Positions 26,932 to 50,431 of a DNA stretch of 64,000 nt are shown one piece after another (positions within the stretch are counted from its first letter, which is position 1; each line of letters begins with the position of its first letter). The DNA is from an uncultured bacterium (GTDB taxonomy: Bacteria; Patescibacteriota; Patescibacteriia; SG8-24; DYFX01), in assembly GCA_937900255.1 (NCBI GenBank), contig CALCDZ010000003.1, forward strand, positions 63,149 to 127,148, read 5' to 3'. Made by a program: the position numbers and the translations under genes. Under the pieces are notes generated by a model. The model was not told where the DNA came from, searched no databases, and saw only the letters and a program-made list of their open reading frames with translations.

Positions 26932-26940
26932 GAGGATGCT

Positions 26941-27615: not shown

Positions 27616-27640
27616 ACCCACTTGAAAAAAGTCTCCGAAA

Positions 27641-27973: not shown

Positions 27974-27990
27974 GCCGATCACGACATCGT

Positions 27991-30053: not shown

Positions 30054-30054
30054 T

Positions 30055-31847: not shown

Positions 31848-31848
31848 T

Positions 31849-32628
31849 ATGCCGACGCGACGCTATGGACAGCATTTCCTGACCGACCGGTCGATCGTCG
31901 CCAAGATCGCCGCCGGCGCGGGCGTCTCCAAGGACGACGCCGTGCTTGAAATCGGCCCAGGGCGCGGCATCCTGACGCGGGCGCTCGCGGAGACCGCCCG
32001 CAGGGTCCTGACGGTGGAGATCGACCGGCGGCTGCACGCGCTGCTCGTGGAGGACGGGCTTCCGGGCAACGTCGAACTCTTGCGGAGCGACGCCCTGGCG
32101 CTCGAACCCGCCGACCTCGCCGCCAAGCTCGGCACGGATTGGAAACTGGTCGCCAACCTTCCCTACGAGATCACCTCGAAGACGCTCGAAAAGTTCCTGC
32201 CGATGCGCTCGCGCACCGGAACCGGCCCGACGTCCATCACGCTGATGCTTCAGAAGGAGGTAGGGGAGCGCATCCTGGCCAAGCCGGGCGCGATGAACCG
32301 CCTGGCGCTCTTCTGTGGATATTATTCCGTGCCGGCGCGGCTTTTCTCCGTCGCGCGCGGGGCGTTTTCGCCGCCTCCGAACGTCGATTCCTGCGTCATA
32401 CGTCTGGACGTCAGGGAGGACGTCGCTTTGGATGGGGATGAAGAAGCCTTGTTTTTCAGGCTGATTGAGGCGGCTTTCTCCGAAAAACGCAAGCAGATCA
32501 AGAATACGATCGGAGGACTGCTCGGTCCGGCCGCTTCCGACCGCCTCGCCGCCGCCGGGCTTTCCCTGTCCGTCCGACCGGAGGAAATCAGCTTGAATCA
32601 GTGGGTAACCTTGGCGCATCGGATGTGA
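31849..32628 (+). CDS. rsmA: 16S rRNA (adenine1518/1519-N6)-dimethyltransferase
   Basis: YGQHFL…VLEIGPGRGILT…NLPYEI motifs. Confidence 0.9.
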   Translation: MPTRRYGQHFLTDRSIVAKIAAGAGVSKDDAVLEIGPGRGILTRALAETARRVLTVEIDRRLHALLVEDGLPGNVELLRSDALALEPADLAAKLGTDWKLVANLPYEITSKTLEKFLPMRSRTGTGPTSITLMLQKEVGERILAKPGAMNRLALFCGYYSVPARLFSVARGAFSPPPNVDSCVIRLDVREDVALDGDEEALFFRLIEAAFSEKRKQIKNTIGGLLGPAASDRLAAAGLSLSVRPEEISLNQWVTLAHRM

Positions 32629-32640
32629 TACCATGGGGGC

Positions 32641-33264
32641 ATGGCCGATGATCTGCAGATCACGGACGGGCAGCCCCAAGGACACCGCGCGGGGGCGTGG
32701 GTCGTTTTGATTATGGGCATCGCCGGGCTCGGCCTCGGGATCTATCAGTGGCAAGGTTCTTTCGCCTCGGCCTTCAAGCAGGTCGGCAGCGGATTCAAGA
32801 CGCCCGACCAGGTCGAGGCCGAACGGATCGCCGGGCTGAAGACCAAGGATACGGACGGGGATGGGCTCACCGATTACGAGGAGACCTACATCTACAAGAC
32901 CAGCCCGTACCTCAAGGACTCCGATTCGGATGGCGTGGATGACAGGACGGAAGTCGAAAAGGGCAGCGACCCGAATTGCACGAAAGAATCGTGCGGCTCC
33001 GGCATCGCTTCGGCCGGGTCGGTCGGGACATCCGGAACGGGCACATCCATCAGCTCCGCTACGGGCACCGATGGTGCGGCGCAGCTCCAGGCGGACGTGG
33101 CGGACCAGCTCCTGAACCCGACGCCCGACCAGATCCGCACGCTGCTCATCCAGGCCGGCGCGAAGAGCGAGGACCTCAAAGGCATCGACGACGCCACGCT
33201 TCTCGACCTGTACCGCCAGTCCCTCGCCGAGGTCCAGCGCAAGTCATCGACGACCACTCCCTGA
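32641..33264 (+). CDS. membrane-anchored protein with thrombospondin-type-3-like Ca-binding motifs
   Basis: TM helix WVVLIMGIAGLGLGIY; DTDGDGLTDYEE and DSDSDGVDDRTE motifs; first gene of the T4SS-like cluster. Confidence 0.55.
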   Translation: MADDLQITDGQPQGHRAGAWVVLIMGIAGLGLGIYQWQGSFASAFKQVGSGFKTPDQVEAERIAGLKTKDTDGDGLTDYEETYIYKTSPYLKDSDSDGVDDRTEVEKGSDPNCTKESCGSGIASAGSVGTSGTGTSISSATGTDGAAQLQADVADQLLNPTPDQIRTLLIQAGAKSEDLKGIDDATLLDLYRQSLAEVQRKSSTTTP

Positions 33265-33273: not shown

Positions 33274-36200
33274 ATGCGCGAAAGGCCATCCGGACGGAAA
33301 ACACGCTCGCTCGCCGCCCCGCTTCTCGCGATCCTCGTCGCGACCGGCGTTTTCGGTTCAGGAATCGTCGCCCCGAGTCCTGCGCAGGCCCAGCTCATCG
33401 TCAGTGACCCTGGTGCCACCGCCGCCGGAACCGTCTCTGCCGCCGCCAACACCACCACCGCTTCCGCGCAGGTCAAGCAAAGCGCCTGGGACGTCCTGAA
33501 GATCGCTCTCACCAACACGGCCGAACTGGCCATCCTGAACGGTGCCAACTATTTCGCGCAGAAAGTCGCCTACGACACGGCCAACTACGTCGCTTCGGGC
33601 GGCAACGGCCAGACGCCGTTCTTCCACACCGAAGGCGTTCTCGATTATCTCGGCAGCACGGCCAAGGACGCCGCCGCCGACGTCCTCGGCACCCTGAGCA
33701 AGGACCCGAACACTTTCGGGAAATACGGCTTCAACCTGTGCGCCCCGAGCGATCCGCACGTCAGCCTCATCATCAAGACCGGATTCCTGAACGGCTTGCC
33801 CGGACTGTTGGGCGGCTCGACCGGAGGGCCGAAACCTTCCTGCAGCTGGGATACGATTTCGCGCAACTGGGACCAGTTCTCCCACCTCGATTCGGACACG
33901 GTGCTGAACAACGTCGGGGTGATGTTCACGCCCGGCCAGAGCTCGCTTTCGGCCGCCATCCAGGTGAACAACGCCGCGCTCGCGGAAATCAGCAAGAAGC
34001 AGGAGGCCGCCGTCAACGATTTCGTCGCCAACAACGGGTTCATCAGCAAAGTCTCCAAGATCGGCGGCAAGGTCCTGACCCCGGCCGATACCATCAAGAC
34101 CCAACTGAACCTTTCCCTCGAAAACGGCTGGAAGCAAGGGGACCAGACGGTCGCGATCAGCAACGGCGCGTTCGGTAACGCGGCCTTCGGCATCCTGCCG
34201 GCCGCTCTCCATACCTTCACGAACACCCTGGCGGAATCGATGATGAAGAAGGTGTTCGACAGGGGCCTGATCACGCTCAACGACATCCTCGGCAATAACA
34301 AGGGCGATACGGCGCTGACGTTCGATGGCGGTTCGTCTCCCGGAGGCAGGGCGTCGGCCGAGCTTTCGAACGCCTCGCTCCTGACCCCGAAGATCCTTTC
34401 GATCACCAACTATAACGCCCTGACCGATTTCGCCGCCTGCCCCGCCGGAAGCCAGCGCGGACCGGACAACTGCGTCATGGACGGACAGTTCTTCACGGCG
34501 GTCAACCGCGCGTCGCAGGGGTCGCCTCTGACCGTGCGCCAGGCAGTGGCGCAGGGGCTCTTGAAGGCGAACTGGCCGCTCCTTCCGCTGGCGCACGGGA
34601 AGAACCACGAATCGACCTGCTACAACGAGGCGTTCTGCTACAGCAACCTGGTCAAGCTCCGCAAGGCCAGCGTCCTTCCGATCGGCTGGGAACTCGCCGC
34701 CAATTCGCCCTTCAACGACGTCAGCCGGCCGATCACGCTCGCGGAAGCCATGAATCGCTTCGACGACTGTCCCACCAAGCCGGATGGCAGCGTCGACGCC
34801 TCCAAGCTGCCCGACCCCTTGCATCCCTGGTGTCACTTGATCGATCCGGAGTGGGTGCTGAAATATCCCGTCCAGATCTGCCGGCAACAGGCGCCCGGTC
34901 CGACCCTCGTGTCTTCGGAATCCCCGGCGCGCGCCCTCACTTGCGTCGATCAAGCCACGTGCATCGCCCAGGACGCTGCAGGCAACTGCGTCGGCGGCTA
35001 CGGCTATTGCGTGCGCGAGAAGAACGTCTGGAACCTGGACGCCGACGCCTGCCCGGCCGCCTACGCCAGCTGCACCACCTTCCGCCGCGCCGACGGGGCG
35101 TCGGCCTCGTACCTGTCCACCACGCTCGACAGCGGTTCGTGCAACGGACAGAACGCCGGATGCCGCCAATACAGCCAGTCGCAGAACGCCGTCCCGAACG
35201 GCGGGTTTGAGGATCTCCTGGACGGGAAAGCGCGCGATTGGACGCTCTCTCCGGGCGCCCGTCTGAGCCGCTCCGGCCTCCTGGCCGAACGCGGATTGGA
35301 CGCCGTCGGGCTCGCGAACGGTGCCGTCGCCAGCGTCGTGATCCCTTCGCTGCAGCCGTCTTCGCCATACGTGCTCTCCGCCTCCGTGCTCCAGGAGTTC
35401 GAGGCGTCCGCCCCGGTCGGCACGGTCACGCTGAAGCTGTTCCGCGCCGACGGCAGCCCTGTTTCGGCGACGGACCTCAAGACCACCTGCACGTACCGCC
35501 AAGGAGACCCCTCCGTCTCTTTGGACATTTCCGCCACGCACCTCGGCTACCTGTCCGGTTCCTGTTCGATCACGCTTCCGAACGACGCCGCGTCCGGAAA
35601 GATCGAGCTGAGCAGCACCACCGCCCAGTCCGGCAATCGCGCCTGGTTCGACGACGTCGGCTTGTACGGCGCTTCGTTCTCGGCTTCGCCGTATGACAGC
35701 CTTCTCCTGAACGGCAAGGTGCAGAAGTGCGCCTCCGACCAGGCCGGGTGCACGGACCTTGTCCGTATGTCGACCGGCACGCTCAACCTGGTGCGCGACC
35801 CGAGTTTCGAGACGCCGGACTCTTCCGGCAACCCCAAATACTGGAGCGTCCCGACCCCCGGCACGTATGAGAAGGGGACGTTCAAGGGCTTCGACGGCGT
35901 TTCCGCCATGCGTCTCGACGCGAACGGCGTAAGCCAGGACGTCACCGGGGTCTTGGCGTCCGCTTCGTACGTCTTCTCGGCCTATACCAAGCTTGGCGGG
36001 GCGGTTTCCGGCAATCCGCGGGCCCTCGTCCAGCTGTACGATACCAGCACTCCGCCTGCTCCGGTCGCTCCCACGTCCGTCACCGGCTGCCAGGTTTCCG
36101 GTACCGGCATCCGCCTCGACTTGGCGGCCGGTTCGGATTACCGGCGCGCCGCCTGCGCTTTCACGACGCCGACGGATGTCGGATACGCGCGCGTCACGCT

Positions 36201-39200
36201 CATCGCCGATAACGGCAGTTCCGCGCTGGTCGACGCCGTGCAGCTGGAGCTCTCCGTCGAACCGACCGGGTATCACGAGGCGTATCCTTCGACGGCCCAG
36301 CACGTCTACCTGAAGACCATGCCGGAGGGATTGGACTGCGCCGGTCCCGACCGCGCTCCCGAGTGCGCCAACTACGCTCCGTCGTGCCGCCGCGAAGAAG
36401 TCGGATGCGACTCCTATAAGCCGGACGACGGCGGCATCGCCATCCCTGCCGTGACGACCGCAGGCGACGCCTGCCCGACGGAGTGCGTCGGATACGATAC
36501 GTTCAAGGAAGAACCGTCGAACTTCAACGACCCTCGCTTCCCGCTGTTCCTCGTGCCGTCCACCGCGCAGAGCTGTTCGGCGGCCGAAGCCGGATGTTCC
36601 GAGTTCACGAACGTCCAGAAGCTCGCGAACGGGGGAGAGTCGAGGGAGGATTTCAGCTACCTGCGCCTGTGCGCCAAGCCGGACCAGAACGCCGGCACTT
36701 TCTACACCTGGGAAGGCAACGACTCGAAGGGGTATCAGCTCCGGACATGGACGCTCCTCAAGAGCCGCATCGCTTCGTCGCCCGTCGGGGGCTCCGACCC
36801 CACCGGCGGCAACGCGCCGTGCACCAAGCTCGCGTACGACAACGCCGGCCGCCCGGCCTGCGCCGATGATGCCGCAAGCGTCGCCGCCGCCTCCTGCCTC
36901 AAATCCGACCTGCTCGCCAATCCGGATTGCCGCGAATTCTACGACGCGGCCGGCGACATCCATTACCGCCTCTACTCCAAGACGGTCGTCGTGAGCGACG
37001 CCTGCACCGAGTATCGCATCACCAAGAGCACGGAAACGGAATGCGGCGCGCATGGCGGGTCTTGGCGCAATCAGGAATGCCATTACTTCGCGTACGCTCC
37101 GGAAAGCCAGAGCTGCCGCGCCGCGGCGGTCGGCTGCCGCGCCTATTCCGGGAACGCTTCGCGCAACGTGCGCGTCGCCCTCGCCGCCGATTTCGAATCC
37201 GGCACCACCGGCGGATGGGTTTCCGCGCCGGGCGGCGGGGCCACGACGGACGTCGCGAACAGCAACGAATCCGTGGCCGCCGGCGGCCACTCCCTCAAGG
37301 TCAGCCGCGCCACCGTCACGAAGGACGTCTCCTCCATCGTCAAGAAAGGGAAGTCCTACCTGCTGACCTTCTGGGCGAAGGGCACCGGCGACCTGACGAT
37401 CGCGTTCAGCTCCGCCGGCGACCGGGCATTCACGTTCAATCGCGTGACGGGGCAGCCCGCGCCCGTCGCGCTCGGCACCGAATGGAAGCCGTACCAGGTC
37501 GGCCCGGTTTCGGCGGTCAATGCTGCGGCGTTCTCCGCCGCCGGGGCCGCCGGAAACGAGCAATTGACGGTCTCGCGTTCCGGGTCCGGTTCGCCGCTCT
37601 TCTATCTCGACAACATCGAGCTGCGCGAAGTGACCGATGACCTGTACCTCATCCGGGACAGCTGGCAGACCCCGGCTTCCTGCGACCGGACGCCGTCGGG
37701 GGATTCTTCCCCGCAGTACATGCTCGGGTGCCGGGGCTATCGCGATCGCTCCTCCCGGAGCGTCGCCCTCAAATCCTTCGATCGCATCTGCCGTCCGGAA
37801 GCGGTCGGCTGCGAAGCGATGTATGATACGCGCCACACCGCCTCTCCTTTCCCTCAGACGTTCGGGGCGGTCTGTTCGCTCGGCGCGGCCTGCGCGCCCT
37901 CTGCCGGGGCCGTGACTTGCCCGTGCAAGATCGCCGGCCAGACGGTCTGCGAGGCGGCTTCCGGCGCGTCCACCTGCCGTTATGACATCGATGATTCCGT
38001 GCCCGCTTCGCGCGTCAGCCCTTCGGGCGACACGGTCCGCATCCCGGCCGACGGCGTCACCTATCTCGTGAACGACGCCCGGTACGCCTGCACGTCGGAC
38101 AACGTCGGCTGCACGATGATGGGGGACAAGACCTTGAACCGCGAGCGTACGGCGGTCCAGGGCTGGAAGACCGTCTACTTCAAGAACGATCCGGCCACGT
38201 ACGCCGACACCCTCTGCAGGAAGACCGAAGAATACTGCCAGGCATACACCAGGGGAGCGGACGGGTCTTCGGCCTATTTCAAGGATCCGGAGCTCCGTAC
38301 CTGCGAGTTCAAGGAGAACGTCGCCGGTTATTCCGGTTGGTTCAAGACCGGGACGAGCGACCCGTGCTACGCGGATTATCTGCAAGCCGGCACCCAGTAC
38401 GGAATCTGGAAGAACTCGGACGCCCCGTACGCCGCCTGGGCCGGCCAGTGCGAACCCCAATACGACCAGTGCAAGGAGTTCGTCGATCCCCAGGACACCA
38501 GCACGCTGCACCCGAACGGCCAGCCGTACTACGCCATCAAGAACGCGCGTCTCGACAGCTCCTCCTGCCAGAACCGCGCCAGCCTGACCAAGTCGCCTTC
38601 GGGAGCCGACAGCGCTTCCGCCTGCGTGCTCTTCTGGCAGACCGACGACCTTCTCAAGACGTTCGATGCCGCCGCCACCTACCAGGCTTCCGACGCCCAG
38701 CGCGGCGGGCTCGTCAGCGCCGTGAGCAGCGACCGCAATGACGCCAACGTCGTCCTGAAGGTGGCACGCGACCGCCAATGCGGCGAATGGCTCGATTGCC
38801 GTTCGAGCGAAACCGTCTTCAATCAGACGTCAGGGCAGTACCAGAACGTCTGCACGTCTTTCGGGCTGTGCGCCCAATATGAACGCGTCGGCAACACGAC
38901 CCGCTGCGTACGTTACGTGGACAGCGCCTACACGGGACAGACCCTCAGCACCAAGATTTATCAGGCGCGTGATACCGGCTGGAAGGGGCTTGAATACACC
39001 AGCTACGCCATCCCGAACCAGTATCCGGTCAACGAGCTCGTGACGATGGACGTGAGTTCCGGCACGCGTTCTTCCAAGCCGGACCTCCGTCTCGTGCGCG
39101 TCAGGGGCGCCTGCGCCGGAGCGTATGGCTCCGCATGCGGACCCTCGGACGATCCAGGCACCTGCCTTGGTCCCTCGAACGCCAGGAAGTGCGTCTATCC

Positions 39201-42200
39201 GATCGACGACGGCCTGAAGGTCACTGCCGAGAGCCAGCTGAAGCAGTCTCAGGCCGCAGCCGGCTACCCCGGTACGTCGTGCCGCGCGTACCCTTCAGAA
39301 AACGCCCCGTTCCCTTCGACGGTCGCCGACCCTTCCGGTTGGAATCTTCAGGCCGCGAGCATGAACAACGGCAATCCGGTGCTGATCGGCCCTTCTCCGG
39401 CCTTCGCCGCCGCCAACGTCTGCCAACGCCGCCTCGTGAACGGCGTCGAGGTCTCCAGTTGCGAATGCAACTACACGATCGCCAAGTACGGTTCCACCAC
39501 CAAGTATTTCCCGTCAGGCAGTTCCGACATCCCGACGGGCTACTGCGGCTCCGGCGCCTATGAAGGATACGAATGCGACCCGCTGGCCTCCGGTGTCCGC
39601 GCGCCGAGCAACCTGTCCTGCTGCAGCAAGAGCACGAACGGCAACGCGTTCGGCGGCCTCCTGAACGGCGGCACTGGCGGCTGTGACGACGGCGCGCAGT
39701 GCATCCGTCTCTCCAAGGTCGATCGCGTGGTCGGTTATGAAGGCCAGTGCCTCGAACGCGATTTCACGACCCCGGTGAACGGGCTCAACAACGAGTATGC
39801 CTGCTTGACCTGGCGCCCGGTCGGCCTGGTCGGCGGCTCGCGCGACATCTACAACCAGAACCAGACGGCCGGCTACTTCGCCGCGGCCGACCGCCGCTTC
39901 TATTGCGTAGGCAGCCAGCCGGCCTGGTCGCTGGACTTCCACATCAACACGAACGAGGACCGGGACCAGACCGACAATCATGACCTGTACTACCAGTACA
40001 AGGGCGTAGGCCCGTACGACCAGTACACCAACAGCTACTTCGGGCACGGTACCGTCACGAACATCGGGACCCACTCGGCTTCCCAACATCACGATTGCGG
40101 AGATGATACGCCGAACGGCGGTTGGTGCGTCTGGCCGACCGATTCCCGTCTCCAGCTGAAAGAGCAACGGGACGGGAATGGGAACGTGGTCACTTGCACC
40201 GGCAACTCGGATTGCGATACCGGCAACAAGTATTGGTGCAGTTCCCAAGACCCGTACAAGAACACCTGCGTGAAAGGGGACACGGGCAGCGCGTCGCAGG
40301 ATCAGTTCAAGGACTACACGTTCGACAACAATGCCGTGGGCGTCCTCGGCTGCTATGAGATCCGCGCGGGCGGTACGCCTGAGACGAACTACATCGATTA
40401 CCCGTATATCGGCCCCCCGCTCTACCGTCAGCAGCTCCAGAGCATCTACTTCCAGGTGAACCGGAGCATCTATCACAACTTTTCCGATACGGATCTGGCC
40501 GCGGCGACCAACCCGCACCAGCAGGTCAATCAGAACTGCAGCGATGCCGACGACCCGTCCATCGCCAGCAACGCCGACAACGATCATGCCGACCAGAACC
40601 CGACCACCAAGGACGTCACCCGCTTGAAGTTCAAGAACGGACAGCCTGAGCGCAAGGACGGCCTCCTGATCCCGGCGAACAATGCCGATCACGGGCTGAA
40701 CATCTACTACCTGGACGAGAGCAACGGCTTCAAGGTCGATGCCTCAAGCGGCAACGGCATCCTGCTGTTCACCGGCAACTTCGACTCGAACGGGAAGCTT
40801 TCCTCGATCCGCATCGGCGCGGCCAACCCCAACGGGCACGGCGGGTCCGACGACGACCGCCACGTCTCCTTCGGCATCCATGCCATGGGCTTCGTCTTCA
40901 AGCCCGGCTGTTCCGAGATCGCCCAGGTGGACCAGGACGGGGAGTTCGGCGCCACCCAGGCCTTCACGAACGCCATCAATCCGGCACGCAATTTCAATCC
41001 GTCCGCCGGAGGCGGGCTGCATGCCGACGTGCTCGTGAACGGGGACCCCAACCCGGCCGCCAACAGCATGCTGGCCGACTACACGAACGCCTGCACGCCC
41101 TTCGGCGCCATCGGGTCGATCTCCCAGCCGCCGCCGGCGACGCCATGGACCTACGTGACATCGCGCTTGTCCAACGACGTCAACCAGTGCACCGTCTCGG
41201 ATTTCACCAAGGGTAACACGTACGAACCTCAAGCGCCGGAAACGCTCGCCGCCAATCCGCCCGTGGACTCTTCCGGGGTGCAGCTGGTCCCGCCTTCTTC
41301 CTGGGCGTCGAGCAGCTTGCGCAACCTCTTCCGCAAGATCTACGACGTCTGGTCGTACCAGCCGCTCGACCTCGAAGCGCGCGGAGGCACGTATCAGCGC
41401 GTCGCGGCCAACAACCCGACCGGCGACCCGGCGGGGAAGGGGGCGTATGACGAGACCGGGCAAGTCGACCCGAACGGCCTGGCGTTCCGCACCGGACTCG
41501 GAAGCTACCTTTCCAACCTGGCTTGGAACGCGCCGAGGATCGCCGCCGTCGACGTCAACGCCTGCGACGGCAACGGCCGCTGCAAGGCCGGCAAGCTGGA
41601 CAGCCTGACCGTCAACGGGCGGGACAGGGGGGTCATCATCGGGGCGGATGGGGCGATGTCCGTGACGGCCAAGTTCTTCGCCTGGGCCTCGCATAACTCG
41701 ATGCCGATCGTGAAGCGCGCCGTGCTCTGGGGAGACTTGGCGTCGGCCGAACCGCCCGCCAAGGGCTGGTATAAGAACCAGAAGCCCGTCTGCTCACCGG
41801 ACGTCTCCGACGCGAACGCCGTCGGCGAATGCGCCAACACTCCGGGACTCACCTGCGGCGCGGATGGCGATTGCCCGAACGGGGATCGCTGCGTCAAGGG
41901 CGCCAACAACTTCGGGAATACGCCCGGCGCCTGCAATGCCGCCCCGTACCGGTTCGACCATGTCTACACCTGCTCCTTGGGCGACCTGCAGTCCATGCCG
42001 CTTTGCACGGGTTCGTCCGAGTCGGCGGATAACGCCCCTTGTTACCGGCTCGTCAATGCGGCACCGGTCTGCGTCTACCGTCCGAAGGTCCAGATCACGG
42101 ACAACTGGGGTTGGTGCAACTGCACCGGTTCCGGCTGCAAGGCCTCCGGCGGCGCGTATCAGGACGGATGCGGCGTGAGCGCCCCTCCCTCCGACGCGAA

Positions 42201-42273
42201 GCCGTGGAGCGAATACGCCGGAGAGATCCGCCTCAGCCCGTCCATCAAGGACGCCCAGGCCTTCCACCCATGA
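33274..42273 (+). CDS. giant (2999 aa) Cys-rich secreted surface protein with at least three CBM4/9-like modules
   Basis: Signal peptide; over 100 Cys with recurrent (A/V)GC motifs; three segments starting NGGFEDLLDG…W, RDPSFETPDSSGNPKYW and AADFESGTTGGW that resemble CBM_4_9 β-sandwich modules; antisense 1806-aa ORF judged spurious. Confidence 0.85.
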   Translation: MRERPSGRKTRSLAAPLLAILVATGVFGSGIVAPSPAQAQLIVSDPGATAAGTVSAAANTTTASAQVKQSAWDVLKIALTNTAELAILNGANYFAQKVAYDTANYVASGGNGQTPFFHTEGVLDYLGSTAKDAAADVLGTLSKDPNTFGKYGFNLCAPSDPHVSLIIKTGFLNGLPGLLGGSTGGPKPSCSWDTISRNWDQFSHLDSDTVLNNVGVMFTPGQSSLSAAIQVNNAALAEISKKQEAAVNDFVANNGFISKVSKIGGKVLTPADTIKTQLNLSLENGWKQGDQTVAISNGAFGNAAFGILPAALHTFTNTLAESMMKKVFDRGLITLNDILGNNKGDTALTFDGGSSPGGRASAELSNASLLTPKILSITNYNALTDFAACPAGSQRGPDNCVMDGQFFTAVNRASQGSPLTVRQAVAQGLLKANWPLLPLAHGKNHESTCYNEAFCYSNLVKLRKASVLPIGWELAANSPFNDVSRPITLAEAMNRFDDCPTKPDGSVDASKLPDPLHPWCHLIDPEWVLKYPVQICRQQAPGPTLVSSESPARALTCVDQATCIAQDAAGNCVGGYGYCVREKNVWNLDADACPAAYASCTTFRRADGASASYLSTTLDSGSCNGQNAGCRQYSQSQNAVPNGGFEDLLDGKARDWTLSPGARLSRSGLLAERGLDAVGLANGAVASVVIPSLQPSSPYVLSASVLQEFEASAPVGTVTLKLFRADGSPVSATDLKTTCTYRQGDPSVSLDISATHLGYLSGSCSITLPNDAASGKIELSSTTAQSGNRAWFDDVGLYGASFSASPYDSLLLNGKVQKCASDQAGCTDLVRMSTGTLNLVRDPSFETPDSSGNPKYWSVPTPGTYEKGTFKGFDGVSAMRLDANGVSQDVTGVLASASYVFSAYTKLGGAVSGNPRALVQLYDTSTPPAPVAPTSVTGCQVSGTGIRLDLAAGSDYRRAACAFTTPTDVGYARVTLIADNGSSALVDAVQLELSVEPTGYHEAYPSTAQHVYLKTMPEGLDCAGPDRAPECANYAPSCRREEVGCDSYKPDDGGIAIPAVTTAGDACPTECVGYDTFKEEPSNFNDPRFPLFLVPSTAQSCSAAEAGCSEFTNVQKLANGGESREDFSYLRLCAKPDQNAGTFYTWEGNDSKGYQLRTWTLLKSRIASSPVGGSDPTGGNAPCTKLAYDNAGRPACADDAASVAAASCLKSDLLANPDCREFYDAAGDIHYRLYSKTVVVSDACTEYRITKSTETECGAHGGSWRNQECHYFAYAPESQSCRAAAVGCRAYSGNASRNVRVALAADFESGTTGGWVSAPGGGATTDVANSNESVAAGGHSLKVSRATVTKDVSSIVKKGKSYLLTFWAKGTGDLTIAFSSAGDRAFTFNRVTGQPAPVALGTEWKPYQVGPVSAVNAAAFSAAGAAGNEQLTVSRSGSGSPLFYLDNIELREVTDDLYLIRDSWQTPASCDRTPSGDSSPQYMLGCRGYRDRSSRSVALKSFDRICRPEAVGCEAMYDTRHTASPFPQTFGAVCSLGAACAPSAGAVTCPCKIAGQTVCEAASGASTCRYDIDDSVPASRVSPSGDTVRIPADGVTYLVNDARYACTSDNVGCTMMGDKTLNRERTAVQGWKTVYFKNDPATYADTLCRKTEEYCQAYTRGADGSSAYFKDPELRTCEFKENVAGYSGWFKTGTSDPCYADYLQAGTQYGIWKNSDAPYAAWAGQCEPQYDQCKEFVDPQDTSTLHPNGQPYYAIKNARLDSSSCQNRASLTKSPSGADSASACVLFWQTDDLLKTFDAAATYQASDAQRGGLVSAVSSDRNDANVVLKVARDRQCGEWLDCRSSETVFNQTSGQYQNVCTSFGLCAQYERVGNTTRCVRYVDSAYTGQTLSTKIYQARDTGWKGLEYTSYAIPNQYPVNELVTMDVSSGTRSSKPDLRLVRVRGACAGAYGSACGPSDDPGTCLGPSNARKCVYPIDDGLKVTAESQLKQSQAAAGYPGTSCRAYPSENAPFPSTVADPSGWNLQAASMNNGNPVLIGPSPAFAAANVCQRRLVNGVEVSSCECNYTIAKYGSTTKYFPSGSSDIPTGYCGSGAYEGYECDPLASGVRAPSNLSCCSKSTNGNAFGGLLNGGTGGCDDGAQCIRLSKVDRVVGYEGQCLERDFTTPVNGLNNEYACLTWRPVGLVGGSRDIYNQNQTAGYFAAADRRFYCVGSQPAWSLDFHINTNEDRDQTDNHDLYYQYKGVGPYDQYTNSYFGHGTVTNIGTHSASQHHDCGDDTPNGGWCVWPTDSRLQLKEQRDGNGNVVTCTGNSDCDTGNKYWCSSQDPYKNTCVKGDTGSASQDQFKDYTFDNNAVGVLGCYEIRAGGTPETNYIDYPYIGPPLYRQQLQSIYFQVNRSIYHNFSDTDLAAATNPHQQVNQNCSDADDPSIASNADNDHADQNPTTKDVTRLKFKNGQPERKDGLLIPANNADHGLNIYYLDESNGFKVDASSGNGILLFTGNFDSNGKLSSIRIGAANPNGHGGSDDDRHVSFGIHAMGFVFKPGCSEIAQVDQDGEFGATQAFTNAINPARNFNPSAGGGLHADVLVNGDPNPAANSMLADYTNACTPFGAIGSISQPPPATPWTYVTSRLSNDVNQCTVSDFTKGNTYEPQAPETLAANPPVDSSGVQLVPPSSWASSSLRNLFRKIYDVWSYQPLDLEARGGTYQRVAANNPTGDPAGKGAYDETGQVDPNGLAFRTGLGSYLSNLAWNAPRIAAVDVNACDGNGRCKAGKLDSLTVNGRDRGVIIGADGAMSVTAKFFAWASHNSMPIVKRAVLWGDLASAEPPAKGWYKNQKPVCSPDVSDANAVGECANTPGLTCGADGDCPNGDRCVKGANNFGNTPGACNAAPYRFDHVYTCSLGDLQSMPLCTGSSESADNAPCYRLVNAAPVCVYRPKVQITDNWGWCNCTGSGCKASGGAYQDGCGVSAPPSDAKPWSEYAGEIRLSPSIKDAQAFHP

Positions 42274-42280: not shown

Positions 42281-44956
42281 ATGAAGACGCTCAGCCGCCT
42301 CATCGACACGATCAAGACGCGCTTGTCCGGGAAACATGCCCTTCCCCGCGTCTTGGGGCTGCTCGCGATCGGCCTGATCGTCTTCGTCCTGCCTGAAGCG
42401 GCGCATGCCTGCGGCACGTTCGACGTCGGATGCTACGTCGGACAGGCGATCATCAAGATCTTCGAGCTGTTGGCGGCGCTGATGGGGTACCTGCTGGTCC
42501 TCGAAGTCTCGGCCCTCATCAGCGTGGCGCAATACGCCAACTTCGTCTCTCCGGGCCCGACGGTGGTGCAGATCGGCTGGGTCGTCACCCGGGACCTGGC
42601 CAACATGTTCTTCATCGTCTTCATGCTCGTCATCGCCTTCTCGACCGTCATCGGCGGGCCGGCGGAGAAGTATTCCTACCGCAGCAACCTCCAGAAGCTC
42701 CTGGTCATGGCAGTCGTCATCAACTTCTCGAAGACGATCGTCGGGCTGCTCATCGACATGAGCCAGGTGCTGATGCTGACCTTCGTGAACGGCTTCAAGG
42801 ATGCGGCGGCCGGAAACTTCCTTTCGGCCTTCCAGATCCAGAAGCTGCTCGAGCTCTCGGACGGCACGAACGGCATCGACTTCGGACTGGTGCTGGCGAT
42901 GATGCTGGCGTTCATCCTGGCCGCCATCGCCGCCTGCGTCGTGCTCATCATGCTGGTCATGATGACGTTCCGTATCGTCATGCTCTGGATCCTGATCATC
43001 TTTTCTCCCATCGCGTTCCTCACGAGCGCTTTCCCGATGGGATCCGGGTTCACCGGGAGGTGGTGGGGGATGCTCAAGCAGTACCTGGTGAGCGGACCGA
43101 TCATCGCGTTCTTCCTGTGGCTGGCGCTCGCGAGCGCGCAGCGGAGTCCGGATGGCCTGGCCAACGAGAAGTACCAGAACGGGGGAGGATTCGCCCAGCC
43201 TTCATCCGCTGCCGGAGCCGAAGCGTCGGCGGCCGGGAACTTCCAGGGTTACGCCATCCCTTCGAGGGCCGGGCGTGCCGACACTATCCTGAGCCTCGTG
43301 ATCATGACCTGCATCATGTTCGCCGGGTTGAAGTTCGCGGCGGAAGACACGAAGGTCATCGGATCGGGCTTCGCGAAGCAGGTCAAGGGACGGGTCGAAG
43401 GCGCGTTGAACACGATCGCCCGCGCGCCTGATCGTTTCGCCAGGGATCAGGTCAGCGGCGCCTTCAGGAGCGTCGGCGGTTCGACCATGAAGGGTATCGG
43501 TACCGGTTTGGCACGCGTGCCGCTTCTCGGTGGGGTCGGTCGCCGCCTCGCCGCCAGGGGCGAGCAGCTCGCGGAAGGCCGCCGCGCGGAACTCGAAAAG
43601 CGTTGGGTCGGTTCCGCCAAGGACCTGGCGAAGTACAATCCTGGTGAATTCGGTTCCAAGATGCGCGTCGGTTTCGCCACCGCCGGACAGATCAAGGAAA
43701 CGGCCGAAGCCGCCCTTGCCAACCCGAAGGCCATGGAGGCGCTCAAGAAGTCGGGCGGCGCCGAAATCGTGCGCGATCGTCTCAAGGCAGCCTCTGAAAA
43801 GGATCCGGCCCAGAAGGGCGCGTACGACAATTTCATGAAGGCCAATTGGGATCTCGCGAAGGACGCCAAGGAGAAGAACGCGATCCTGGGGAAGTTCAGC
43901 GGGGAAGAGGCGCGGAAGTACATGAGCGCGCCCCAGATGACGGAAGAGCACGTCTCCCAGTTCGGCAAGAACACCTTGACCGACATCCTCGCGAACGGCA
44001 AGGGCGAACAGCAGGCTGCGGTCCTTGGGGCCTTCAGCGCCAAGAACGCCAGCGGCGAACTCGGCAAGTTCATGAAGGAGAGGCGCATGACCTATGCCGA
44101 CATCCCGGCCGAGGCATACGCGCAGGCCGGCGCGTCCGGCAAGTCCTTGAAGCTGAGCGCGCTGGAAGCGGCGGAAAAGGATCCCGCGCTGATGAGGAGA
44201 TTCACCGAGGACGCGAAAATGCGCGACCAGCTGGCGCCGGTGGCCAGGGACAATTTCGCGGCCGCCGTGACCGACATCGAGAAGGCGCAGAAGCTCGCCA
44301 TCCTCTCCCAACTGGGCGGCGCCACGGCTGCGGACTTCGGTTCGCCGCCGGCCGGCAGCCCGCCCGGGACCCCGAGCGACATCGAGGTCGGCATCGGCCA
44401 GCTGTCAGCCAAGGCGCTCAATGACTTGGAACGGAGCACGCCGACCGACAACCCTGCCGCGCAGGCCGGTCTCGCGAAGATCCTGGAGGCCGCCGTCAAG
44501 AACGGCAGCACCGACCTGGTGCAAGCCATCCAACGCAGCCCGAACCTGTCCACGTACGTGCCGCTCACCGTCGCCCGCGAGGCGGAGAAATCGACCGGCG
44601 GCTACAGCGCCAGCGTCAACAGCGCCGCGAACACGAAGCTCGCCGAACTTGATCGTCGCAGGAGGGATGCGGCCAGCAGTACGGATCCGGGCGTGAAGAG
44701 CGCGGCCTTGGGAATAGCCGATGACATCGAGCAGATCCGCGAAGCGATGGATGGGGCCAAGAAAGCGGCCAGGGAATTGGCGGCCGTCGAAAAGAACATC
44801 GCCACGCTCAGGGAAAACTTCGCGGACCATCAGAAGGGGGGCAGGGCGGATGACATGGCCAAGGTCGCCGCTGAGATCAAGACCGCGCTCAAGGAGGCTT
44901 TCGAGAAGAAAGAGAAGCTCGCGAAGGCCAACGATAGGCTCAAAGAGGTGAGTTAA
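42281..44956 (+). CDS. TrbL/VirB6-like polytopic membrane protein with about 590-aa coiled-coil-rich C-terminal extension
   Basis: N-terminal about 300 aa with 6-7 TM helices in VirB6/TrbL-like arrangement; long hydrophilic K/E/A-rich tail; start 8 nt after giant gene stop. Confidence 0.6.
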   Translation: MKTLSRLIDTIKTRLSGKHALPRVLGLLAIGLIVFVLPEAAHACGTFDVGCYVGQAIIKIFELLAALMGYLLVLEVSALISVAQYANFVSPGPTVVQIGWVVTRDLANMFFIVFMLVIAFSTVIGGPAEKYSYRSNLQKLLVMAVVINFSKTIVGLLIDMSQVLMLTFVNGFKDAAAGNFLSAFQIQKLLELSDGTNGIDFGLVLAMMLAFILAAIAACVVLIMLVMMTFRIVMLWILIIFSPIAFLTSAFPMGSGFTGRWWGMLKQYLVSGPIIAFFLWLALASAQRSPDGLANEKYQNGGGFAQPSSAAGAEASAAGNFQGYAIPSRAGRADTILSLVIMTCIMFAGLKFAAEDTKVIGSGFAKQVKGRVEGALNTIARAPDRFARDQVSGAFRSVGGSTMKGIGTGLARVPLLGGVGRRLAARGEQLAEGRRAELEKRWVGSAKDLAKYNPGEFGSKMRVGFATAGQIKETAEAALANPKAMEALKKSGGAEIVRDRLKAASEKDPAQKGAYDNFMKANWDLAKDAKEKNAILGKFSGEEARKYMSAPQMTEEHVSQFGKNTLTDILANGKGEQQAAVLGAFSAKNASGELGKFMKERRMTYADIPAEAYAQAGASGKSLKLSALEAAEKDPALMRRFTEDAKMRDQLAPVARDNFAAAVTDIEKAQKLAILSQLGGATAADFGSPPAGSPPGTPSDIEVGIGQLSAKALNDLERSTPTDNPAAQAGLAKILEAAVKNGSTDLVQAIQRSPNLSTYVPLTVAREAEKSTGGYSASVNSAANTKLAELDRRRRDAASSTDPGVKSAALGIADDIEQIREAMDGAKKAARELAAVEKNIATLRENFADHQKGGRADDMAKVAAEIKTALKEAFEKKEKLAKANDRLKEVS

Positions 44957-44974: not shown

Positions 44975-46783
44975 ATGGATCTCCTCCAGAAAATCCGAAA
45001 GCTTCCGGAGCCGGTCCAGGACTATCTGTATTCCGAGTCCTTGCTGCACGGGAATGGGCAGGTCATCGAACGGAACGCCCTCGATTTTGAGGGCCAAAAA
45101 ACCTTCCTCCGCCTCCTCCAGCGTGTCTTCGCCCGCGAGGTGCCGATGTCGGATCTTGAAAAAGAAGCATCCGCGCTCGTCGGAGGAGACGAAGGTAAAA
45201 GCAAGGCGTTGGCGCGCGATATCGCGGGCTACTGCCTCCTGCCGCTCGACCGCTGGCTCGGCGATGTTTCAGGTTATGTCCGTCGTCTCGGCGGGGACGT
45301 CTCGAGCTATCCGGCCGAGCGCATCCAGATGGTCGAGCGCACGCGCGACGAGGCGGCGTCCGAGGTCGTCAGTTCTTCCGACGGCGCGGCCGAAGCGACG
45401 GCGCGCGCCCGCGAGAGGATGCGGGACGTGGTCACGTCCTTCTTGGCAGGCATCCGCACGGAAGAGCAGGCGCTCGAGGTCCTGACGCGGTCCGACAAGA
45501 TCGGCGGCGTCGGGCTCGACCCGTCCGCCGCCCGGTCAGTGATCGATCATGCCAAGGAGGAACAGCGCACGGTCGTCATCAAGGAAGCGCCGGCCGTCGG
45601 CGCCCCGCCTGCGGCCGCTCCGCAAGCGCCATCCGCCCCCGCGCCGAAGCCGAAGGAGGACTTCGTCATGATCGCGCCGGAAGACGAGGAGGAGATCGCT
45701 CTGTTGAAGGAAAAGGCATCGTCGGCCAAAGGTACGCAGCAGGCAGACGAGACTGCGCGGCGCATTCAAGCCTCGATCGATCGCATCTACCTCGATTCCG
45801 GCCTCGCGACCGACGACGAGGATTTCTCGAAGCGCGTCAAGACGGTCATCGGCAACCGCCTCCGCGACGTGCGCGATCAGATGGAGACGCTTGAGACGAT
45901 GGTGCAGCCGAAGGAACTCGGCGGGCTCGGTCTCGGCCAGGAATCGGCGCGGCGCCTCCTTGGCATCATCCAGGGCAGCCTTCAGGAGGTCCATGAAGCG
46001 CATGCCGAGCGGATCGAAGGGGAAAAAGCCGCTTGGGTGGAGAAGGAACGCCGCAAGGCGGCCGAGGCACCCGCCCAGGAAGCGGCCGCTCAGGAATCGG
46101 ACCTGGAGCGCCTGTATCGCAGCATCGTCGCGAAATCGAAAAAAGCCACCAAAATGGCCGCCGTTGCCGCGCCCGTCGCAGCGCCGACCCCGGCGATGGC
46201 TGCGGCGCCCGCTTCGAAATTCCCGAGTCCTCCGTCGAACCTGCCGGTTTCCGACGTCCATATCATTCCACCGCACTTGCGCGCGCCCGTGACCATCCCG
46301 CTCCCGGAGGTCGAGATCGCCCCCGTTCGGACGTTCATGCCGCAGCCGCCGCTGACCCTCGTCAAGCCCGTGCCCGGCGCTCCCGCCCCCATGCCGGCCT
46401 TTTCGGTCGTGCCTGGGCAGCCGAACCGCCCCCGCATGGAAGACGTCAAGGCCGCTCCGAAGCTGACCGGACCGGTCGAGGAGCTTCGGGCCATCACCGT
46501 CGTCGATTTCCGCCGGCTCTCCAAGGACCCGAAGGAGGCCTGCATGAAAGTGAAGGACAAGATCGATCTTTTGGCCGAGCAGTCCTATACCCGAAGGACC
46601 GAAGGTCTCAAGGCCTGGTCGGCTTCCGAGGTCGTCCGTACCTATCTGGAACTCATGCGCGAGGGCCTGAACGGAATGCCGTTCAAGGAGGCGGTCGCGG
46701 CCCGCGAGGCGGCCAAGAGGCCGTTCCTGACCGCGGAGGAGTTCCAGGCGATCGGGGAGCTGAGCAGACAACTGCGATATTAA
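44975..46783 (+). CDS. hypothetical 602-aa protein of the T4SS-like cluster (no TM, Pro/Ala-rich linkers)
   Basis: Long GC3-biased ORF, no recognised motifs, no Walker box. Confidence 0.55.
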   Translation: MDLLQKIRKLPEPVQDYLYSESLLHGNGQVIERNALDFEGQKTFLRLLQRVFAREVPMSDLEKEASALVGGDEGKSKALARDIAGYCLLPLDRWLGDVSGYVRRLGGDVSSYPAERIQMVERTRDEAASEVVSSSDGAAEATARARERMRDVVTSFLAGIRTEEQALEVLTRSDKIGGVGLDPSAARSVIDHAKEEQRTVVIKEAPAVGAPPAAAPQAPSAPAPKPKEDFVMIAPEDEEEIALLKEKASSAKGTQQADETARRIQASIDRIYLDSGLATDDEDFSKRVKTVIGNRLRDVRDQMETLETMVQPKELGGLGLGQESARRLLGIIQGSLQEVHEAHAERIEGEKAAWVEKERRKAAEAPAQEAAAQESDLERLYRSIVAKSKKATKMAAVAAPVAAPTPAMAAAPASKFPSPPSNLPVSDVHIIPPHLRAPVTIPLPEVEIAPVRTFMPQPPLTLVKPVPGAPAPMPAFSVVPGQPNRPRMEDVKAAPKLTGPVEELRAITVVDFRRLSKDPKEACMKVKDKIDLLAEQSYTRRTEGLKAWSASEVVRTYLELMREGLNGMPFKEAVAAREAAKRPFLTAEEFQAIGELSRQLRY

Positions 46784-46799: not shown

Positions 46800-47228
46800 A
46801 TGGCCCAGTTCGTCGTCCCGCAATTCATCGACGTTGAAGACAAGATCATCGGACAGGTGACGGTCCGCCAGTTCGGCATCATGATGGTCGATGCGCTCGT
46901 CTGCGTCATCGTCTACAAGCTCCTGAGCCTGGCCGTCGCGATCGCCATCGACGTGGCGCTGCTCGCGGCCGGGCTGACGCTCGCCTTCGCGCGCGTCAAC
47001 GGGCAGCCGTTCCACTTTTTCCTCCTGAACGTGCTTCAGACCTGGCGTCGGCCGATGATCCGCGTCTGGAACAAGGAACTTTCCGACGCGGAGATCATCG
47101 CCCTTTCGAAGGTCGAACCCCCGCCCCCGGCCCCGCGCCGCGTCTATAAGGAAGCGCCGACCACCTCTCGGCTCTCCGAGCTGGCGCTCATGGTCAATAC
47201 CGGCGGCGTCTACAATCCCGAGGAATAG
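46800..47228 (+). CDS. PrgI/VirB3-like small membrane protein
   Basis: N-terminus FVVPQFIDVEDKIIGQVTVRQFGIMMV matches the PrgI-family pattern (E-x-K-I-x-G-x-T-x-RQ) followed by two TM helices. Confidence 0.55.
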   Translation: MAQFVVPQFIDVEDKIIGQVTVRQFGIMMVDALVCVIVYKLLSLAVAIAIDVALLAAGLTLAFARVNGQPFHFFLLNVLQTWRRPMIRVWNKELSDAEIIALSKVEPPPPAPRRVYKEAPTTSRLSELALMVNTGGVYNPEE

Positions 47229-47247: not shown

Positions 47248-47946
47248 ATGGCGAATGAGCAGCTGATGCAAAGCAAGAAGCTCGCCGGGTCGAAACCCCA
47301 GGTCTCGACCCAGCAGTTCTTGGATATCGCCGAAATCCGGGAGGACGTGGTCGTCATGAAGGACGGCACGATGCGGGCGGTGCTGCTGGTCTCGAGCATC
47401 AACTTCTCGCTGAAGTCCGAGGACGAGCAGGAAGCGATCATCCAGGGCTACATCTCCTTCCTGAACTCGCTCGATTCCCCGGTGCAGATCCTCATCCAGT
47501 CGCGCAAGCTCGACATCGACGACTACCTGAACCGCCTCAAGGAGCACGAAAAGACCCAGTCCAACGACCTCCTGCGGAACCAGATCGTCGATTACCGGCA
47601 GTTCGTGAAGGAGCTGGTCGAGCTCGGGGAGATCATGCAGAAGAAGTTCTTCGTGATCGTGCCCTACAACCCGGCCTCGTCCAAGCGCAAGGGCTTCTTC
47701 GCCCGGATGGGAGAGGTGCTCTCGCCGCTCGTCTCGGCCCGCCTCCGGGAAGAGCAGTTCCGCCAGCGCAAGAAGGACCTCATGGTCAAGGTGGATTCCG
47801 TCAGGGCCGGATTGAACTCGATGAGCCTGATGAGCGCGACGCTCGACACCCAAAGCCTGATCGAGCTTTACTACACGGCCTATAACCCCCAGTCGATGCA
47901 GTCGCAGAAACTGGAGAAGGTCGACAACGTGCGACTTGAACCGTAG
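47248..47946 (+). CDS. virB4: VirB4/TraC-family ATPase, N-terminal fragment (CagE_TrbE_VirB region)
   Basis: DVVVMKDGTMRAVLLVSSINFSLKSEDE and FFVIVPYNP align with the VirB4 N-terminal domain; ends with TAG, 2 nt before the next ORF in a different frame. Confidence 0.65.
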   Translation: MANEQLMQSKKLAGSKPQVSTQQFLDIAEIREDVVVMKDGTMRAVLLVSSINFSLKSEDEQEAIIQGYISFLNSLDSPVQILIQSRKLDIDDYLNRLKEHEKTQSNDLLRNQIVDYRQFVKELVELGEIMQKKFFVIVPYNPASSKRKGFFARMGEVLSPLVSARLREEQFRQRKKDLMVKVDSVRAGLNSMSLMSATLDTQSLIELYYTAYNPQSMQSQKLEKVDNVRLEP

Positions 47947-49849: not shown

Positions 49850-50431
49850 ATGACTGCCCGAAGACGCGCCATCCTGATCGTCATCCTGGCCCTGCTGCTC
49901 GTCGCGATCCTGGCGACGGCGATCTGGCTCCTTTTCCGGAAGGCGAAGCCGACTTCCATCTACGTCCCGCAGCGCGTGGATTCCGCGACCTCCCAGCCGG
50001 CGGCCGTGCCCGCTATGCCCAACCCGCTCGCTCCGGCTGTCCAGGTTTCGGCCGGAAGCACGGCCGCCGCCCAAATGGCCGAGCTGTTCGCCGAGCGTTA
50101 CGGGAGCTACTCCAATCAAGGGAACTTCGGGAACCTCAAGGATCTCCTGCCCGTCATGACCGCCACGTATCGCGCGGCGACGGAAGCCTACCTCGCCGCC
50201 GCCAAGCCGTCCGACGCGGCCGATTACCAAGGAGTGACCAGCGTGAAGATTTCCACCAAAGTCCGGTCGTATGACGCTTCGGCCGGCACGGCCACGGTCG
50301 CCGTCATGCTGCAGCAGCAGAAGAGCGCCGGCGCTTCCGTCACGCCGTCCATCAGTTACCGCTCCCTCAAGATGACCCTCAAGAAGTCCGGTTCCGATTG
50401 GAGGGTCGATTCCGCCGCTTGGGAGAATTGA
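49850..50431 (+). CDS. bitopic membrane protein, possibly an NTF2-like (VirB8/TcpC-like) fold
   Basis: Single N-terminal TM (ILIVILALLLVAILATAIWLL) plus about 150-aa extracytoplasmic domain; fold assignment is inference. Confidence 0.45.
   Translation: MTARRRAILIVILALLLVAILATAIWLLFRKAKPTSIYVPQRVDSATSQPAAVPAMPNPLAPAVQVSAGSTAAAQMAELFAERYGSYSNQGNFGNLKDLLPVMTATYRAATEAYLAAAKPSDAADYQGVTSVKISTKVRSYDASAGTATVAVMLQQQKSAGASVTPSISYRSLKMTLKKSGSDWRVDSAAWEN

Follow-up and report, generated by a model that had tools for sequence, protein, structure and literature searches.

Within a 64,000-nt stretch of DNA from an uncultured member of the Patescibacteriota (contig CALCDZ010000003.1; hereafter the window), we analysed a gene encoding a giant protein of 2999 amino acids (aa), together with the genes around it. 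The giant gene is linked to genes of a type IV secretion system (T4SS) in an operon-like arrangement with conserved synteny. The order of the genes on the + strand is KsgA, a protein with TSP3 repeats, the giant gene, an 891-aa protein, a 602-aa protein, PrgI/VirB3, TrsD, VirB4, a VirB8-like protein and a ComF-like protein. Intergenic gaps from the TSP3 gene through the VirB8-like gene are 7–35 nt, and terminator-like sites are no commoner than expected by chance. All coordinates are positions within the window, and residue numbers refer to the giant protein unless another protein is named. Details of the features are presented in Table 1.

Table 1. Features of the giant gene, its product and the neighbouring genes.
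Feature	Positions	Strand	Residues	Description and basis
TSP3 protein	32641..33264	+		207 aa; one N-terminal transmembrane segment (its aa 17–35); 2 Cys
Giant gene	33274..42273	+	1–2999	ATG to stop without interruption; 2999 aa, 110 Cys; full-length homologues
Sec signal peptide	33274..33390	+	1–39	Sequence reading; predicted cleavage AQA↓Q
N-terminal domain	33391..34428	+	40–385	Cys-poor save the conserved pair C156/C190; AlphaFold2
VirB5-type mature N-terminal motif	33391..33453	+	40–60	QLIVSDPGATAAGTVSAAANT; BLASTP to Agrobacterium tumefaciens VirB5
S1	34429..35193	+	386–640	Most conserved, family-specific Cys-rich domain
CBM-like module 1	35194..35718	+	641–815	hhalign to module 2; AlphaFold2 pLDDT 80–94; Foldseek
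CBM-like module 2	35776..36309	+	835–1012	PDB profile match; Foldseek; hhalign to module 3
S2	36319..37173	+	1016–1300	Cys-rich beta-hairpin scaffold; AlphaFold2 pLDDT 80–92
CBM module 3	37174..37668	+	1301–1465	Sole module recognised by Pfam
S3–S5	37669..39933	+	1466–2220	Conserved beta-rich Cys core; near-invariant Cys; AlphaFold2 partly confident
Variable region	39934..41523	+	2221–2750	Poorly conserved; many insertions/deletions among members
C-terminal domain	41524..42273	+	2751–2999	Conserved, Cys-rich; motifs MPI....WGD, DNWGWC
VirB6-like polytopic membrane protein	42281..44956	+		891 aa; starts 7 nt past the giant stop
602-aa protein	44975..46783	+		Ala/Pro/Glu-rich; without transmembrane segment, signal peptide or known domain
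PrgI/VirB3-like small membrane protein	46800..47228	+		PF12666, E 5e-8
TrsD-like protein	47248..47946	+		Resembles VirB4 N-terminal domain; NCBIfam TrsD E 1.6e-8, VirB4_plasma E 2.5e-10
VirB4-type ATPase	47949..49844	+		PF19044 TraG P-loop E 7e-28; AAA_10
VirB8-like bitopic protein	49850..50431	+		PF04335 E 2.5e-4, just under cut-off; N-terminal transmembrane segment
ComF-like protein	50466-51113	+		Phosphoribosyltransferase and double zinc ribbon

The original prediction, made from the sequence alone, described a single open reading frame (ORF) of this length with a signal peptide and more than 100 cysteines, and our analysis agrees with it in each respect. Cysteine makes up 3.67% of the giant protein (110/2999). 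The proteins encoded by the neighbouring genes contain 0–4 cysteines each, with the exception of the zinc-ribbon ComF-like protein, which has 8. Because hundreds of genomes hold full-length orthologues (2600–3800 aa, 27–66% identity), the giant gene is no fused pseudogene, and an origin as a frameshift, fusion or pseudogene product is excluded. An antisense ORF of 1806 codons (33358..38778, - strand) lies wholly inside the giant gene; it is most likely no gene, being a by-product of the 64–67% GC content and of stop-poor antisense frames. Absence of a CBM (carbohydrate-binding module) fold, frameshifts, or homology to RHS or S-layer proteins had been named in advance as findings that would overturn the prediction; we looked for each of them and found none.

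About 85% of the giant protein has no family match in Pfam. Besides the CBMs and weak VirB5/DUF4141 matches at the N-terminus, Pfam and NCBIfam gave no match in the window protein and 14–59 homologues; YD/RHS repeats, SLH, S-layer and cell-wall-binding families were all missing from this set. Pfam likewise found neither PrgB adhesin nor Ig-like domains in the window protein or the scanned homologues, and no hydrolase, protease, lipase or pore-forming family was present in any region of the 14–59 members. The earlier remark that no close characterised homologue is apparent holds for Pfam, NCBIfam and PDB profile searches.

A protein search recovered 101 clusters of 1862–3858 aa, mostly ~3000 aa, which align over their full length at 27–66% identity; the few names among them are Magasanik-, Uhr-, Kerfeld- and Parcubacteria. 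Scanning one genome per GTDB species with a 14-sequence alignment of the family located a relative at at least 546 loci, and each locus examined holds one homologue of ~3000 aa. Among the 80 loci listed in detail, with taxonomy taken from the record titles, each informative title is that of Patescibacteria; named carriers are Uhr-, Falkow-, Magasanik- and Nomurabacteria, Ca. Paceibacter and Minisyncoccota. Many third-party-annotation records of metagenome-assembled genomes with the giant-gene locus (L003–L079) bear the title 'uncultured Gammaproteobacteria bacterium'. Since these contigs hold the same locus as the Patescibacteria-named records, such titles are evidently placeholder or wrong names, misleading for taxonomic summaries.

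When a profile of the S1 domain (aa 380–640) was used in an exhaustive HMMER search, the matches comprised at least 1155 clusters (50% identity), and 1015 of these reached E<=1e-30. S1 is located at residues ~350–650 in all full-length (~3000-aa) proteins among the 150 matches listed, and the shorter S1-bearing entries are most likely fragments. The sharp fall-off in the scores of the S1 matches indicates that there are no diffuse relatives elsewhere. Repeat searches returned the same 92 proteins with a 62-sequence profile and one fragment with S1 alone (word-indexed search). Named database entries of the family are all 'hypothetical protein', and no published description of it was found in the literature.

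The N-terminus of the giant protein has the make-up of a Sec signal peptide, in which a basic n-region is followed by a 20-residue hydrophobic core, LAAPLLAILVATGVFGSGIVA, and by AQA↓Q (the arrow marks the predicted cleavage). A hydrophobic N-terminal region of signal-peptide type is present in 97/100 family members. The recurrent short motifs quoted in the original prediction could all be located, at aa 628, 824, 1043, 1106, 1286, 1511 and 1611, and every one of the seven is the second half of a hairpin of the form C-x6-[AV]GC-x2-[YFLM]. Including a further two at 1648/1655 and 1726/1733, the protein contains nine C-x6-C hairpins in total.

Most cysteines of the window protein are found in at least 90% of the 101 members and many are invariant, while the cysteine count is even in 90/101 members. 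The variable cysteines come and go with a sequence neighbour, as reciprocal best partners (r up to 1.0), with r=1.0 for the co-varying pairs 449/455 and 1257/1269; further reciprocal partners are 939/961, 1183/1196, 1964/1973, 2764/2770, 2867/2873 and 2950/2955. Because the cysteines are conserved, their counts are even and their gain and loss is paired, there is strong indirect support for the proposed disulfide stabilisation; disulfide bonding of the cysteines is almost certain, in the local pattern expected of an exported protein. Metal binding by the cysteines is a formally possible alternative. No Dsb or VKOR genes were found among the larger window ORFs scanned.

Three modules of CBM4/9 type had also been proposed. 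Segments of the NG(G/D)FE type begin at aa 642, 842 and 1306, each ~12–18 residues past a hairpin. Module 3 (aa 1304–1408) passes the Pfam family CBM_4_9 (PF02018) with 34.7 bits, the cut-off being 25.9, and 13/14 members share this match; modules 1 and 2 alone stay below Pfam recognition. Profile comparison with hhalign relates module 1 to module 2 (probability 99%, E 6.5e-19) and module 2 to module 3 (probability 96%, E 2e-9). In a PDB profile search module 2 matched the CBM16 structure 2zew (E 5e-4), which was also found by Foldseek with a TM-score of 0.76, and for module 1 Foldseek returned a tandem CBM22 structure, 4xup (E 5e-12). AlphaFold2 models all three as CBM-type beta-sandwiches (jelly-roll) with a predicted local distance difference test (pLDDT) score of 80–94. 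The three modules are thus homologous to one another and of the CBM4/9/16/22 type. Compared with the CBM families 4, 9, 16 and 22 of glycoside hydrolases, they are set in a Cys-rich scaffold and are not accompanied by a catalytic domain. Module 1 is missing from ~64% of family members, as judged by the gap fraction of the alignment. Fold and genomic context together suggest that the modules may bind glycans and that the giant protein may serve as an adhesin.

The AlphaFold2 models were built on alignments of 31–33 rows, and aa 2200–2999 lie outside the modelled range. Confidence is low for aa 36–380, 540–635 and 1035–1135 in the first model and for aa 1640–1920 in the second. Foldseek searches, with queries that contained the CBMs along with S1 and the Cys-rich scaffold, gave CBM-type or CBM-driven matches only. 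For the N-terminal domain neither a PDB nor a VirB5 profile match was obtained; matches to coronavirus nsp8 (E 0.005–0.1) were judged to be long-helix noise.

S1 is marked by the motifs KLRKA..P.GWELAA, HPWCHLIDPEWVLKYP and GGYGYCVREKN, and its model is confident for aa ~385–535. Within it, the segment DC...HPWCHLIDPEWVLKYP..CRQ..PGP (window 34700–34900, aa ~480–545) faintly recalls the first half of SRCR domains. An SRCR identity of S1 was rejected: the summed E-value of 2.7e-5 to chicken PIT54 (9h0m) is a summed-repeat artefact, made up of four repeats that are each insignificant alone (i-E 9–1500) and cover ~50 residues of a ~110-aa domain. The scaffold at aa 1000–1640 is modelled with pLDDT of about 80–92 as short strands and 3-10 turns. 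Hairpins are located at 1038/1045, 1101/1108 and 1281/1288 in S2 and at 1506/1513, 1606/1613, 1648/1655 and 1726/1733 in S3–S5. S2 and S3 are related by an internal duplication (hhalign probability 93%, E 2.7e-7), the repeated unit being '...YF[IV]P...C-x6-GC-xEF[T]'. In the variable region, identity to the query is 0.09–0.26 and the gap fraction 0.24–0.64, and no Pfam family was found there in 56 members. A PKD-like C-terminal domain, an impression given by the WGD and DNWGWC motifs, is unsupported, with one weak match among 56 members (E 0.026).

The mature N-terminus of the giant protein resembles that of VirB5. BLASTP aligns PAQA↓QLIVSDPGATAAGTVSAAANT of the window protein with ARA↓QFVVSDPATEAETLATALET of A. 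tumefaciens VirB5 with 14/25 identities (pairwise E 6e-4); the junction of the latter reads PARA↓QFVVSDP-ATEAETLATALET and that of the window protein AQA↓QLIVSDP. The sole NCBIfam match of the giant protein is to VirB5 (PRK13860, aa 21–95); its E-value is 0.012 when the whole protein is the query and 0.0011 with an N-terminal fragment, and 5/59 members show it. Weak matches to Pfam DUF4141 occur at the same N-terminal site in 6/59 members (best E 6.9e-4), and DUF4141 is also the only Pfam match of A. tumefaciens VirB5, at its own signal-peptide/mature junction (E 0.0016). PF07996 does not match the giant protein, while TrwJ scores 2.8e-35. Among the homologues, P0005 has ARA↓QGIPVIDA where TrwJ of R388 has VMA↓QGIPVFDG, and P0172 and P0021 have Q(I/M)PVTDA. 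The pattern [FLMWIVY][VIP]V[STVI]D[PAV] is found within residues 16–70 of 16/210 full-length members, 0.17 being expected from the frequency of the motif elsewhere in the same proteins. The window protein combines the Sec signal peptide with the mature motif Q-x-[IV]-[PV]-V-x-D. PDB profile and phmmer searches found no VirB5, TraC or CagL, and tblastn against plasmids was negative. The order of the giant gene and the VirB6-like gene mirrors that of virB5 and virB6 in pTiC58 and R388. We read the VirB5 likeness as a motif-level resemblance, which supports a mechanistic hypothesis and does not amount to family membership.

The 891-aa protein encoded directly after the giant gene has ~8 hydrophobic helices in its aa 20–354, followed by a long hydrophilic tail. 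It has no direct family match, and hhalign to A. tumefaciens VirB6 and to TrwI was negative. Its orthologues in loci L081 and L061 (tblastn E 4e-46 and 2e-49) match Pfam TrbL/VirB6 (E 1.4e-5 and 5.8e-4) over most of the profile. We call it VirB6-like because of this transitive homology together with its topology and position. The gene of the 602-aa protein is conserved in 22 loci, where it separates the VirB6-like gene from the VirB3-like one, which makes the protein an as yet unassigned component of the T4SS cluster. The neighbouring genes scanned included neither a relaxase nor a coupling-protein gene, and a function in conjugation is therefore unlikely.

Synteny was counted in 81 related loci, the downstream count being limited to the 32 with enough sequence (L013 included). 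In 23/32 loci the 10 kb downstream of the giant gene contain a VirB6-like gene, which is followed by VirB3/TrsD/VirB4/VirB8 in about half of those 23. The distance between the giant gene and the VirB6-like gene is 5–730 nt in L014, L025, L039, L049 and L061, where the orthologues are only ~30% identical. In many Uhrbacteria 3–9 kb of unrelated genes separate the two. On the upstream side, the order of a block of GroEL, RF2, NAD-epimerase, Sua5, (MFS) and KsgA (window 25189–33264) is unusually stable, being kept in orthologues only ~30% identical (L002–L081).

The stop codon of the TSP3 gene is 9 nt ahead of the giant gene. Its product contains Ca-binding repeats of the thrombospondin type 3 (TSP3), DTDGDG and DSDSDG, which match Pfam TSP3_bac (E 4e-5) and the TSP3 regions of NCBIfam MtsD/CglD. 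A TSP3 gene is found upstream of the giant gene in 63/63 loci with upstream sequence, 61 of them within ~400 nt. Among 71 copies, 62 have the transmembrane segment, 63 have DxDxDG and 57 have exactly 2 Cys. The TSP3 protein is likely to be a partner or an anchor of the giant protein.

Further observations were made on other genes of the window. The ComF-like gene comes after the T4SS cluster in 10 related loci, and the strongest stem-loop of the region (13 pairs, 50451–50481, + strand) lies between the VirB8-like and ComF-like genes, overlapping the ComF-like start. A 436-aa protein (61299–62609, - strand) has a signal peptide, a VirB2-like T4SS_pilin domain (PF18895, its aa 71–128, E 6e-8, two hydrophobic helices) and a C-terminal part, ~270 aa long and rich in Cys, making it a second Cys-rich extracellular T4SS-related protein of the genome. 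In its C-terminal part PGANPHSAGYACDL and YEVWHFNWAG align with the catalytic motifs of the M15/VanY-type carboxypeptidase YodJ (4ox3), a match that is insignificant (E 2.1); the protein may represent a fusion of a pilin with a peptidoglycan peptidase. A 380-aa protein (3200–4342, + strand) ends in a SpaA_2 domain (PF19403, E 1e-11) with the prealbumin-like fold that characterises pilins and adhesins of Gram-positive bacteria.

The T4SS of Patescibacteria has been described as a distinct, chromosomal, MPF-FATA-like system, widespread in the phylum and usually without relaxase, in which TrsD, VirB3, VirB6, occasional VirB8 and VirB2-like pilins cluster by virB4 (PMC12102498). The same survey of the phylum states that 'no adhesins such as PrgB were detected' (PMC12102498). 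Southlakia epibionticum, a cultivated member of the phylum and the one that is genetically tractable, cannot do without its T4SS genes when it grows as an epibiont on its host (PMC10633639; reviewed in PMC12857230). In role and position the giant protein is comparable to known T4SS adhesins, from which it departs in sequence, size and chemistry. With the PrgB (pCF10) adhesins it shares the nature of a large Sec-exported surface protein encoded with MPF-FATA-type genes (PrgI/VirB3, VirB4, VirB6, VirB8) and the proposed holding of a partner cell via a lectin-like domain; in contrast to them, it is disulfide-rich and lacks both LPXTG (0/101) and PrgB domains.

The VirB5/TrwJ/TraC minor pilins, which are the tip adhesins of Gram-negative MPF-T systems, likewise have a Sec signal peptide with A-x-A↓Q-[FLMWG]-[VI]-[VP]-V-x-D, a gene directly upstream of the VirB6 gene and an extracellular helical N-terminal part (for the giant protein, a low-confidence prediction), and the window genome also encodes a protein with a VirB2-like pilin domain. 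However, the giant protein is 13x larger (2999 vs ~220 aa), is Cys-rich with lectin modules, shows no detected homology past ~25 residues and is found with a monoderm-type T4SS, from which VirB5 is said to be absent (PMC12857230). The giant proteins of Omnitrophota are also very large and secreted, and they likewise belong to a host-dependent nanobacterium in which their position beside a secretion machine is conserved (bioRxiv 10.1101/2023.11.21.568195). They differ in belonging to another phylum and to a system resembling a type II secretion system or type IV pilus; moreover, the family described here is without hydrolase domains and has a strikingly fixed length of ~3000 aa.

We consider the chances about even that the giant protein is a Sec-exported, disulfide-stapled stalk or adhesin of the Patescibacteria T4SS-like apparatus. 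The original prediction had it delivered or anchored by the adjacent T4SS-like proteins. The adjacent genes are real and linked to it, but the T4SS is unlikely to deliver it: given its classical Sec signal peptide, the protein is more probably an extracellular part or partner of the T4SS than a substrate. As a stalk or adhesin, the giant protein would be the conserved extracellular partner of a Gram-positive-type T4SS-like machine, consisting of an elongated beta-hairpin scaffold stapled by ~55 mostly local disulfides, of three lectin-type beta-sandwich modules inserted after C-x6-C hairpins and of a fast-evolving region near the C-terminus. Cleavage of the signal peptide would expose the VirB5-like N-terminus, and the N-terminal helical domain could then mount on the VirB6-like protein encoded directly downstream. 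The upstream TSP3 Ca-binding protein may also hold the giant protein at the membrane. The giant protein is long enough to bridge an envelope, and its Cys-rich stalk would carry the variable region and the lectin modules across it to where they might bind polymers of the host cell surface, and such binding would bring the secretion channel or pilus against the host. Both the docking on the VirB6-like protein and the part played in contact with the host are inferences.

In the R388 structure, VirB5 forms a pentamer that sits atop a pentamer of VirB6, and the N-terminal part of VirB5 points outward (PMC9259494). It is doubtful, though conceivable, that the giant protein is itself a genuine VirB5 of hugely increased size, whose N-domain oligomerises after Sec export on the VirB6-like base as TrwJ does on TrwI; a VirB2-like pilus or channel would then have the disulfide-stapled body as its tip or spike, latching onto glycans of the host wall.

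Several findings weigh against a T4SS stalk or adhesin. The VirB5 resemblance ends after ~25 residues, its strict motif is present in only ~8% of members (16/210), most having degenerate versions, and the PRK13860 match, at 15.4–18.9 bits, misses the cut-off of 346. A profile of the family N-domain gave an hhalign probability below 1% to TrwJ or A. tumefaciens VirB5, and the long helices (48 and 58 residues) modelled for aa 40–385 have pLDDT mostly <50. LPXTG occurs in the last 60 aa of 0/101 members, and a C-terminal transmembrane helix or other anchor motif was not found. A CBM fold is no proof of sugar binding, as Cry and Vip3 toxins use the fold otherwise. As for synteny, 9/32 loci have no T4SS gene within 10 kb downstream (e.g. 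Magasanikbacteria L001), and the upstream housekeeping block is about equally syntenic. Therefore, the T4SS adjacency could partly reflect frozen gene order rather than function, and synteny alone is suggestive and not conclusive.

The main alternative, possible if rather unlikely, is that the giant protein acts independently of the T4SS, as an adhesin of the surface or a fibre of the envelope; with the TSP3 partner it would make up a self-contained module for host attachment or for the cell surface, the adjacency being inherited gene order. Its only invariant neighbour is indeed the TSP3 protein (63/63 loci), the block upstream is as conserved as the T4SS genes, the loci without a nearby T4SS gene and the interrupted arrangement of many Uhrbacteria fit readily, and export by the Sec route needs no T4SS. 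It accounts less well for the close abutment (5–730 nt) to the VirB6-like gene, which recurs in ~30%-identical orthologues, and for a VirB5-type N-terminal motif in a protein whose sole NCBIfam match is a T4SS component; besides, no other T4SS-associated adhesin is known in Patescibacteria (PMC12102498).

It appears improbable that the protein gives the ultrasmall cell shape or protection as an S-layer-like or wall-associated scaffold, with the CBMs bound to the cell's own wall polymers. A single ~3000-aa homologue per locus, fixed among housekeeping genes, would suit such a core structural gene, CBM-type modules could have peptidoglycan or glycans of the cell itself as ligands, and Ca-binding TSP3 repeats like those of the partner are common in envelope proteins. 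Yet the 14–59 members scanned contain no SLH, S-layer or cell-wall-binding family, and the variable region and the presence or absence of module 1 are easier to reconcile with a diversifying interface than with a lattice protein. It is highly improbable that the protein is secreted as a toxin or lytic factor directed against the host envelope. Foldseek does return Vip3, Cry and binary-toxin B components, and Omnitrophota giant proteins beside secretion systems are implicated in degradation of the prey wall (bioRxiv 10.1101/2023.11.21.568195), so that a similar wall-degrading or Vip3-/Cry-type activity might be imagined here. However, the structural matches rest on the CBM-like domains only, with TM-scores of 0.1–0.2 over long alignments, and the 14–59 members lack hydrolase, protease, lipase and pore-forming families in all regions. 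As to an artefact, whether a fused pseudogene, a chance ORF or an RHS/YD member, DNA of this GC content does yield long spurious ORFs such as the antisense one, but hundreds of collinear full-length orthologues with invariant cysteines and the lack of any RHS/YD match leave this explanation next to no probability, and we regard it as already refuted.

Patescibacteria make up a large share of bacterial diversity and apparently live attached to hosts. Encoded at the head of the T4SS genes, the giant family is a concrete candidate for the host-contact element of their T4SS, and the best one for that missing part. At least two types of Cys-rich domain that lack annotation emerge from the family, S1 and the C-x6-C hairpin scaffold, and Pfam contains neither; the family also suggests VirB5-like N-termini in monoderm-type systems. 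If the protein were a true VirB5, a VirB5-class subunit would be known for the first time from a monoderm-type T4SS, and the protein would be the physical link coupling the T4SS of ABY1/Paceibacteria-type ultrasmall bacteria to the host. Localisation, partner binding and glycan specificity of the giant protein become testable questions, and host range might be readable from its variable region.

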